Assembly: GCA_963557075.1 (NCBI GenBank)
Contig: CAUWDA010000007.1
Coordinates: forward strand, 2,082-66,081
DNA: 64,000 nucleotides
Direction: 5' to 3'
Source: an uncultured Flavonifractor sp.
Lineage (GTDB): Bacteria; Bacillota; Clostridia; Oscillospirales; Oscillospiraceae
Made by a program: the position numbers and the translations under genes. Every line of letters starts with the position of its first letter. The first letter of the stretch is position 1. Positions 24,305 through 24,500 of the stretch are shown piece by piece. The notes beneath the pieces were generated by a model. The model was not told the origin of the DNA, searched no databases, and saw nothing but the letters and a program-made list of their open reading frames with translations.

Positions 24305-24500
24305 GCCGGATTGTTTGCCAGTGTAGAAGCTGCTTGTCTTGGGACCCGCCGCAGGCGGGACGCGCCTATGGCGCGCAGGCCGGGGGAATTCACTTTCCCC
24401 GGCCGCAAATAAAATCCGGGGTTCCCACGGGACTGGTCCCGTGGGGGTCAAGCAGCCGCCCAACTCTCTGGGCCTGCCCTACTTCCGGGAGGAGCGGTAA
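24253..24500 (+). mobile_element. 196-bp unit: 144-nt structured element flanked by two synonymous variants of the permease 3' end
   Basis: 24253-24304 vs 24449-24500 (6 differences, all silent); GGAATTCA at 24385; antisense segment at 24329-24338. Confidence 0.7.

Follow-up and report, generated by a model that had tools for sequence, protein, structure and literature searches.

The stretch of DNA analysed here, called the window throughout, comprises 64,000 nt of an uncultured Flavonifractor sp. (contig CAUWDA010000007.1) and contains, at the end of a permease gene, a short insert, E, flanked by two copies of the gene's end. The organization is described in the following terms. U is the upstream flank or gene body, X is a gene-end copy, E is the insert, and the order is U-X-E-X. 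The gene (23315–24304) encodes a BPD_transp_2 ATP-binding cassette (ABC) permease, as identified with Pfam. X1 (24253–24304, plus strand), recognised as a direct repeat and from its sequence, is the last 52 nt of this open reading frame (ORF), including the stop codon TAA at 24302–24304, and a target motif, ..AAGGA (24248–24252), lies directly on its 5' side. E is 144 nt long (24305–24448), begins directly past the stop codon and is sited between X1 and X2 (24449–24500, plus strand), a silent second copy of the gene's last 52 nt with six synonymous differences from X1. A native bidirectional terminator (24507–24551) lies 3' of X2.

On the plus strand, the permease E is composed as follows. A spacer of variable sequence (24305–24328), assigned from sequence and predicted fold, extends from the stop codon to the guide, and its start, CCGGATT, is predicted to pair with AATCCGG in the linker. 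The guide, GCTGCTTGTC (24329–24338), is the antisense of GA|CAAGCAGC, which spans the U|X1 junction (24251–24260), and also of CAAGCAGC at the start of X2; it begins 76 nt past the junction, a distance made up of X and spacer, the family norm being 71–85 nt. The scaffold (24339–24448), delimited by sequence, fold and covariance model, forms the 3' three-quarters of E and consists of four hairpins, a linker and a tail. Hairpin 1 is cccgcc-gca-ggcggg (24345–24359), hairpin 2 is cgcgcc-tat-ggcgcg (24361–24375), and hairpin 3 (24378–24404) has the tip GGAATTCACTTTCC; an A-rich linker ending AAATCCGGGGTT (24405–24423) leads to hairpin 4 (24424–24445) and the tail GGT (24446–24448). The original prediction, made from the letters of the window alone, had listed these hairpins, and all are present at the positions it gave. 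It had also described an mgsA copy with the same hairpin order and different stem sequences, as well as an antisense guide. Both descriptions hold, GCTGCTTGTC being the reverse complement of GA|CAAGCAGC, with equivalent matches in the mgsA and xpt copies.

The window contains four copies of E at three genes, namely the permease gene, an xpt-like gene and mgsA, and the covariance model adds none. At the xpt-like phosphoribosyltransferase gene (18098–18670), all parts are on the plus strand. X1 (18616–18670), a direct repeat preceded by GTGGA, has the same sequence as X2 (18815–18869), and the E between them (18671–18814), of the typical subfamily, scores 89.9 bits with the covariance model. Its guide, GCCAGAGATTCCAC (18698–18711), is antisense to GTGGA|ATCTCTGGC and is followed by hairpin 2 (ACAAGCG..CCTTG), hairpin 3 with the tip GGAATTCACTTCC, hairpin 4 and the end GGGGC. 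The mgsA copies form an X-E-X-E-X array with a unit of 203 nt on the minus strand (3470–3936), recognised from direct repeats and the covariance model; its parts are X1 (3936–3876), E (3875–3734), X2 (3733–3673), E (3672–3531) and X3 (3530–3470). The guide CCCCGCTCCAG (3860–3850, minus strand) is antisense to CTGGA|GCGGGG. No ORF, promoter or terminator is found within E.

Homologs were collected with a pattern of conserved single-stranded parts, GGAATTCAYTT..AAATC..CGGGGT, which was derived from one subfamily and scanned over one genome per species and over metagenome contigs. The pattern matched 39 loci in the genome scan and 31 in the metagenome scan; three matches are due to chance (loci L015, L035 and L041), 11 come from one IS608-like insertion sequence, and the remainder are E. 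A covariance model built from 16 typical copies recovered additional, more diverged ones, for a total of about 50 distinct copies at about 30 distinct sites, mostly on contigs of metagenomes or metagenome-assembled genomes (MAGs), of which L071 and L077 are possibly chimeras formed at E. All hosts are Oscillospiraceae or unclassified Clostridiales, as MAGs or isolates, bar one contig labelled Anaerovibrio. The named carriers are Pseudoflavonifractor, Lawsonibacter faecis NSJ-52, Enterenecus and Pseudoscilispira, and the complete genome of Vescimonas fastidiosa MM35 has two copies, with nothing annotated by RefSeq at either site. The targets mgsA, infB, truB and sdaA recur in several genera, and groES and serC are also among the housekeeping genes hit. 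Of the distinct targets, about 20 are the 3' ends of genes that run in the same direction as E, and four (truB, sdaA, L017b and L024) are 5' ends of genes on the opposite strand; at 5'-end targets the ribosome-binding site (RBS) comes from the element side (truB in Vescimonas; L021 and L027).

The guide is the antisense stretch of 8–16 nt that abuts the first hairpin on its 5' side. The longest exact antisense match between a guide and its own junction averages 10.4 nt (maximum 16) and is at least 8 nt in 22 of 25 distinct targets, compared with a mean of 5.4 nt for non-cognate guide/junction pairs, 3% of which reach 8 nt, and with 4–7 nt in a sense-strand control. The match always crosses the U|X junction, covering 2–9 nt of U and 6–12 nt of X, and in every genic case the target lies within coding sequence. 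Among 27 hand-curated targets, the flank tends to end in GGA: position −3 is G in 52%, position −2 is G in 70% and position −1 is A in 48%. As had been predicted, the guide can pair with the start of X, in either copy, as well as with the upstream ..GGA end. In minimum free energy folds its partner is the upstream junction for the xpt unit and the start of X2 for the permease unit; since the two folds use different partners, both may be accessible in principle. The guide of L031 and L036 does not correspond to the local target itself, rather to a synonymous variant of it, and was thus fixed against the allele of another host. The distance from junction to guide is 71–85 nt in about 25 of 32 loci, regardless of where the stop or start codon falls; the exceptions are one target with 41–43 nt and single cases of 64, 91 and 102 nt. 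Where X1 equals X2 up to the guide, the joint between X1 and guide has an overlap of 1–8 nt or a filler of 3–6 nt, and the E–X2 joint is precise. The 3' end of E is GGGG plus 1–3 nt. The idea that hairpin 4 or the 3' tail of E mimics the upstream flank of the same copy was rejected, as similarity does not differ between cognate and non-cognate pairs (p = 0.22) and only the G-run is shared.

Single-sequence folds of three copies beat shuffles on the plus strand, with z = −5.5, −3.5 and −2.5. MAFFT/RNAalifold on the raw alignment recovered hairpin 3 only, after which a hand-specified structure and the covariance model were used. In the resulting alignment of 47 distinct copies, standard pairs occupy 90.4% of cells versus 69.0% for shuffled partners, with none of 500 shuffles reaching the observed value; both-sided, compensatory changes are seen in 35 of 37 pairs, and the covariation score is 0.446 versus 0.117 in the control. 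When partner columns are slid by 1–3 positions, pairing falls to 37–54%. The covarying scaffold of the original prediction is therefore confirmed among these homologs. Hairpins 1, 2 and 4 pair in 96–98% of cells, and the lower stem of hairpin 3, which is poorly aligned, in 77%. The invariant positions are the hairpin 3 tip GGAATTCAYTT, AAAT(C) and GGGGTCCCC.

The wobbles in hairpins 1, 2 and 4 comprise 38 G:T or T:G and one A:C or C:A. Since a fold of the opposite strand would give the reverse ratio, E(+) is the folded strand. The strand that reads with the usually co-oriented host gene is thus the one that folds, as RNA or as single-stranded DNA (ssDNA). The original interpretation survives in part: the conserved, strand-specific single-strand fold stands, as either RNA or ssDNA, and splicing or circularisation is shown by nothing. 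In metatranscriptome contigs (Logan), read at contig level only, E is present; one contig continues from X1 into E, and none has a U|X2 joint. The plus-strand wobbles, the roughly 5:1 co-orientation with genes and the metatranscriptome presence favour an RNA stage, without proving it.

Mobility at the DNA level had not been proposed in the original prediction and is an addition to it. Among strain-level contigs encoding an identical permease protein, the site is empty in L003 and L006, where the terminator comes straight after the stop codon, and occupied in L001, L002, L004, L005 and L007. The permease X1 is the same sequence as the empty-site allele of L003, and X2 differs at 6 of 52 nt; the flanks, compared with those of the near-isogenic L003, have 11 differences in 3990 nt upstream and one in 2720 nt downstream. 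For mgsA, where the loci encode an identical MgsA protein, six loci have no unit, L084 and L092 have one, and L087, L093 and the window have at least two. The empty mgsA allele equals the last X copy, X1 differs at 3 of 59 nt, and the flanks show no difference in 700 nt upstream and two in 1297 nt downstream. The foreign tract is confined to E and part of one X copy, about 200 nt. L027 and L040, of the sdaA group, share 99.3% identity in E, compared with 88.5% in the upstream gene bodies and 68% in the downstream DNA, and X1 of L027 is a mosaic, host-like in its left part and donor-like in its right part. These comparisons show that E has spread recently from genome to genome despite the divergence of the flanking genes. 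In the two-unit mgsA array, the middle X is recombinant between the outer two, so that arrays grow by unequal crossing-over.

The foreign X copy varies by locus, being X1 at mgsA, X2 at the permease gene and a mosaic at sdaA. The data fit an X+E unit of about 200 nt that joins the chromosome by a crossover at a variable position in X; given cycles of excision and re-entry, they fit equally well an entry at the junction followed by conversion. X is usually 40–85 nt long, with a range across loci of 40–100 nt. Over 15 loci, the X1/X2 differences amount to 63 nt in synonymous and 26 nt in nonsynonymous codon changes, neither copy is frameshifted or prematurely stopped, and the stop codons differ in 8 of the 15. 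Because the changes are mostly synonymous and the frames intact, both X copies would derive from functional alleles, one of them imported. X1 and X2 are identical, including non-coding bases past the stop or start codon, at L023 (81/81), L018, L038, L017b and L040. A duplication that stops exactly at the stop codon was considered as a mechanistic feature and discarded, as X passes the stop by 20–30 nt in L018 and L038. In L020 and L059, X ends before the stop, and E provides an in-frame TAG. The apparent boundary at the stop codon would arise because the untranslated regions (UTRs) of different hosts are not conserved and the gene end is imported from an ortholog.

We consider E very probably to be a mobile, guide-matched, non-autonomous cassette. 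On balance, we lean towards a composite reading in which a gene-end copy, a guide and a scaffold make up a non-autonomous, guide-bearing homing cassette that acts single-stranded. Any specific chemistry assigned to it is, at most, a tentative suggestion. The unit, of about 190–220 nt, would consist of X (with the stop codon or, at 5' ends, the start codon and RBS), the guide of 8–16 nt and the four-hairpin scaffold, and it would sit in a gene, with a preference for sites that follow (G)GA, so that the order U-X-E-X results. The X copy beside the gene body now serves as the end or start, which keeps the gene intact and makes the other X a silent duplicate. The plus strand would act in single-stranded form, either as a read-through transcript from the host gene or as ssDNA. 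The guide may clamp the target junction or, alternatively, hold the 3' end of the element together with X, a pairing that would line this end up with the first base of X, like the internal guide sequence (IGS) or exon-binding site (EBS) of an intron or the guide of IS200/IS605. X would provide homology, so that joining could be completed at differing positions within X. A trans-acting enzyme would perform the chemistry and would recognise the invariant hairpin 3 tip and the AAATC..GGGGTCCCC segment. Recombination between X repeats would lead to precise loss and to tandem amplification. It is tempting, and no better than possible, to go further and picture a programmable, protein-less element of about 200 nt whose fold and guide direct a host or trans enzyme to matching gene ends, the gene being patched with the element's own copy. 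If this is true, a molecular ruler within the insertion complex would account for the near-constant 78-nt spacing, and E would be a natural minimal guide-directed insertion, separate from TnpB/IscB, IS110 bridge RNAs, group II introns and CRISPR-associated transposons (CASTs).

Several points weigh against the homing-cassette reading. The locus-to-locus variation of the foreign X is more readily reconciled with recombination at variable points in X than with a guide-directed cut at a fixed site, and it could be obtained by ordinary homologous recombination alone. The near-constant spacing of 71–85 nt suggests a ruler in the founding event, with a target duplication of about 78 bp, which an X carried as cargo would not predict; this trace of a founding duplication in turn conflicts with the foreign X1 at mgsA. 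Five intergenic copies are without any X duplication. The joint origin of a new guide and a new X is left unexplained. The searches turned up no enzyme, and none of the E copies is accompanied by a protein gene; the one protein-linked relative is an IS608-like element, which has only the hairpin 3 tip and the linker in common with E and scores about 15 bits with the E model. The fitting of the 47-copy alignment to the covariance model favours structure, with an effect that far exceeds the controls, and the RNA evidence consists of assembled contigs, which may include DNA.

Among the alternatives, a model of RNA-templated or other staggered-cut insertion takes the spacing as its starting point. 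Only guide and scaffold would be inserted, the 3' end being joined at the guide-defined site and the second strand cut about 78 nt away, so that fill-in makes X a long target-site duplication, in the manner of short interspersed nuclear elements (SINEs) and target-primed reverse transcription (TPRT) or of linear introns, with later spread by recombination. The distance from junction to guide, held in most loci wherever the stop codon falls, the identity of X1 and X2 in several loci with non-coding bases included, the precise 3' junction beside an X1–guide junction with overlap (TGAT at L018) or filler, and the plus-strand wobbles with co-orientation to transcription all agree with it. However, the mgsA X1 is foreign to its flanks, which is unlike a fresh duplication; one target X is only about 41 nt, and others are 64, 91 and 102 nt; intergenic copies have no duplication; no reverse transcriptase or nickase is linked to E; and a copied guide would retain its old specificity, so that the perfect local matches require a further step. 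We therefore regard it as unlikely. Intron-like processing would cut a U-X1-E-X2 transcript at U|X1 and E|X2, both aligned by the guide, into a U-X2 mRNA and a linear or circular X1-E RNA, and the released RNA would reverse-splice or be copied back into empty alleles. Group I introns have an internal guide sequence, and group II introns use pairing between exon- and intron-binding sites (EBS/IBS). As in both, one internal antisense segment of E can align the two junctions, by pairing with the end of U and the start of X and also with the end of E and the start of X. Wobbles confined to the plus strand, the co-orientation of about 20 distinct targets versus four anti-oriented ones, transcription of E within the host gene without a terminator of its own (metatranscriptome contigs) and the intact frames of both X copies are likewise in its favour. 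Nevertheless, E lacks a catalytic core, its 115–140 nt of simple hairpins being far under any known self-splicing core, and it lacks conserved splice-site nucleotides, the 5' site being without a conserved U and the 3' end without G. Rfam 15 at the gathering score gives no match in the whole window, and E-value searches with two E copies gave weak matches outside E or implausible ones (miRNA precursors, unrelated small RNAs). The supposed intron would contain an exon copy bearing a stop codon. Antisense-oriented copies occur, those of truB and sdaA being well conserved, unspliceable from the host mRNA and the source of their own RBS. Even without splicing, the mRNA encodes the complete protein, and no spliced junction is seen among metatranscriptome contigs, contigs being all that was searched. 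The splicing or circularising RNA that had been proposed, recognisable as no known ribozyme or intron family, is thus very unlikely.

An ssDNA element of the IS200/IS605 type, akin to palindrome-associated transposable elements (PATEs), would have its Y1 HUH transposase TnpA encoded elsewhere; TnpA would bind the hairpins of one strand and move X1+E as a single-stranded circle, the cleavage sites being located through the guide 5' of the hairpin foot. Like such elements, E is small and has no coding capacity, its fold is strand-specific with covarying hairpins near both ends (hairpin 1 on the 5' side, hairpin 4 at the 3' end), an internal guide directly 5' of the first hairpin pairs with the cleavage or target site, and the left flank, ..GGA, resembles the element's own 3' end, GGGGY. 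Moreover, one IS608-like tnpA-tnpB element from rumen Oscillospiraceae and Ruminococcaceae MAGs has GGAATTCACTTTC and GGATTGAAATCCGGGGT at its left end (LE), ordered as in E, so that a GGAATTCACTTTC hairpin and a GGATT..AAATCCGGGGT motif are in common. This element has a TTAT/AAAA site–guide pair and an LE hairpin 18 nt from the terminus, an arrangement like that of IS608. Unlike the 4-nt guides of IS200/IS605, which recognise a tetra- or pentanucleotide site, however, the guide of E is canonical antisense of 8–16 nt, and the cleavage site would be about 78 nt away from the hairpin; E is flanked by a duplicated gene end of 40–100 nt, whereas IS200/IS605 inserts without duplication. The shared motif is antisense to tnpA, whereas E folds on E(+), and the E model gives the insertion sequence end only about 15 bits at a locus chosen by the search pattern itself. 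No transposase is near any E copy, no tnpA is present in about 620 kb of carrier DNA, a tblastn search of the IS608-like TnpA and TnpB against the collected carrier DNA found nothing beyond the IS copies, a regular expression for the Y1 motif has no match in the 64-kb window, and the genome and metagenome pattern scans yielded no protein partner except this one IS608-like element. There is no clear replication-strand bias: the plus strand of the window is G-rich throughout and E lies on both strands, that is, in both orientations relative to GC skew, and of 31 loci, 23 have E(+) on the G-rich strand, a count confounded with gene orientation. Membership in this class is accordingly quite unlikely, and the IS608-like element is best taken as a lead to a shared binding partner or ancestor. 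Finally, E could be a passive structured repeat of 3' UTRs and intergenic regions (REP/ERIC-like, perhaps an RNA-stability or regulatory module) that has no dedicated mobility, its guide a cis-acting pairing segment and its spread due only to ordinary flank recombination and unequal crossing-over. The variable crossover points within X, the mgsA array with its recombinant middle X, and standalone diverged relatives without X that precede a terminator beside tRNA-Leu, like a small RNA gene, are in line with it. What such a repeat leaves unexplained is that about 30 gene ends share one scaffold with a matching guide and a duplicated end, that the guide target is always inside the coding region, and that a foreign tract of about 200 nt lies amid kilobases of identical flank; it is improbable to the same degree as intron-like processing.

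The homing-cassette reading also invites comparison with other known systems. Integrative elements of the tRNA, tmRNA, dusA and guaA-type islands carry the target gene end in attP, and cis-mobilizable elements (CIMEs) are their integrase-less derivatives. Like these, E inserts in a gene end, brings a replacement end (with RBS at 5' ends) and leaves a direct repeat, and the imported end differs at synonymous sites with both X copies intact. Unlike them, the E unit is about 200 nt, non-coding and without integrase or cargo; one scaffold serves about 30 genes, there is an internal antisense guide, and crossover positions vary. In integrons, attC consists of R''-L''...L'-R' boxes with a GTTRRRY core in a single bulged hairpin. 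E resembles integron cassettes in joining a payload to a structured, strand-specific site in tandem units (X-E-X-E-X), with the pairing partner of its 5' box lying across the unit boundary, but it has no R/L boxes (GTTRRRY), is multi-hairpin, and carries as payload a gene fragment identical to the target, with no integron integrase context. The RNAs of IS110/IS1111 have split guides to both strands in internal loops and lie beside a DEDD recombinase gene, and the 2-nt core is duplicated. As with these RNAs, a non-coding nucleic acid encoded by the element specifies a conserved target by base pairing; in E, however, the guide is single and contiguous, there is no ORF within or beside it, and the duplication is 40–100 nt. 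The bridge or seek RNAs of IS110/IS1111 are reportedly the subject of Durrant et al. 2024 and Siddiquee et al. 2024. With miniature inverted-repeat transposable elements (MITEs), REPINs, ERIC and BOX, E shares being short, non-coding, multi-copy, hairpin-rich, often placed just past stop codons and unannotated in RefSeq. It differs from MITEs in having no terminal inverted repeats or target-site duplication of 2–10 bp, its ends being the guide and GGGG+N, and from all of these in inserting inside coding sequence with a locus-specific guide and a gene-end duplication.

Two further candidates were rejected. In a diversity-generating retroelement (DGR), the differences would be at adenines; those between X1 and X2 consist of G>C, C>T, C>G and T>C, most of them silent at the codon level, and no reverse transcriptase is encoded among the ten largest window ORFs scanned. 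A CRISPR-like mini-array does not fit, since what is conserved here is the 140-nt "spacer", the "repeat" being locus-specific.

A full-text literature search gave no description of such an element, and no described family is known to join a covarying four-hairpin scaffold and a duplicated gene end in a protein-less unit of about 200 nt with an internal, contiguous guide to its own insertion site. Should a cognate Y1 transposase or recombinase exist, E would become an unusual derivative of a known family. If the homing-cassette reading is right, gut Oscillospiraceae have a mobile element whose target is written in its own 8–16 nt and which repairs the gene it interrupts, one more solution among the mobile DNAs that follow a guide (IS200/IS605, IS110, group II introns, CASTs). 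Such an element would further imply an enzyme that reads a simple four-hairpin scaffold, of interest for programmable insertion. The cultured carriers V. fastidiosa MM35, L. faecis NSJ-52 and the Pseudoflavonifractor isolates make the system testable. In practice, the unannotated 200-nt units duplicate gene ends, form tandem arrays and lead to broken or chimeric contigs in assembled metagenomes, and they are strain-level presence/absence markers in housekeeping genes (mgsA, infB, truB, sdaA, groES, serC).

The IS608-like element is multi-copy (L044:4785–6450; also L025, L030, L032, L042, L056, L057, L060, L065 and L069) and encodes a tnpA of 131 aa and a tnpB of 410 aa. Its second hairpin, in the orientation antisense to tnpA, is followed by TTTT and is terminator-like for an outward antisense transcript.

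In V. fastidiosa, the native start of truB (L094:4116–4335, NZ_AP023416.1) is translationally coupled to an upstream DHH phosphoesterase gene, with TAA then ATG. The insertion shifts the real truB start about 220 nt downstream, to a position behind an E in antisense orientation and an AGGAG provided by the element. In RefSeq, the annotated start is the downstream one, and neither the duplicated N-terminal fragment nor E has an annotation.

L. faecis NSJ-52 has two tandem diverged relatives of the scaffold (L023:903–1030 and 1066–1195), intergenic and without X duplication, with the tip GGCGGATT(C/T)ACTCCGCC and a 3' helix different from that of E. An intrinsic terminator and a tRNA-Leu(CAA) gene follow directly, and the two relatives resemble a stand-alone small RNA gene; a tRNA/tmRNA scan, made only around the standalone relatives, identified the adjoining tRNA-Leu as ordinary.

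Three copies (L071:2075–2204, L077:1633–1764 and L074:5067–5192) have the E 3' half and the right flank in common, and their left halves and flanks differ; the pattern reflects either recombination between E copies of different loci or assembly chimeras at the repeat. The Anaerovibrio-binned contig, L046 (CAVJBM010000020.1), has a response-regulator target and a near-identical E that match the Oscillospiraceae contig L026, and its label is likely a binning error. BLAST against phages and plasmids gave matches only in two unverified virome scaffolds and in the Vescimonas chromid; two pattern matches in viral contigs were dismissed as chance. The two scaffolds, "UNVERIFIED Bacteriophage sp." of 4.8–5.0 kb from human faeces (MT838705, MT838853), have E at one end (L095:1–236, two adjacent copies; L096:55–183) and probably stem from bacterial DNA that entered virome preparations, their assembly having broken off at the repeat.

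Among the other genes of the window, the ten largest ORFs match housekeeping families in Pfam (hisS, mfd, a P-type ATPase and others) or have no match, with no transposase or reverse transcriptase, and the neighbours in the strain-level loci also include gidB, a parA-like gene and mgsA. At four sites (24553–24580, 2406–2433, 8856–8883 and 15242–15269), a heptamer microsatellite, (GAGATAG/GAGATAA)n, lies beside terminators, and its copy number at the permease locus varies among strains L001–L006. Two parB/noc-like paralogous regions (9487–10377 and 11667–12503), which have 81-nt and 53-nt repeats in common, are separated by a tandem array (11316–11641) of 3.1–3.3 copies of a 98–99-nt unit, 91–93% alike. 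Every unit of this array holds GTGTTTCACG, half of a parS-like motif, and two hairpins.

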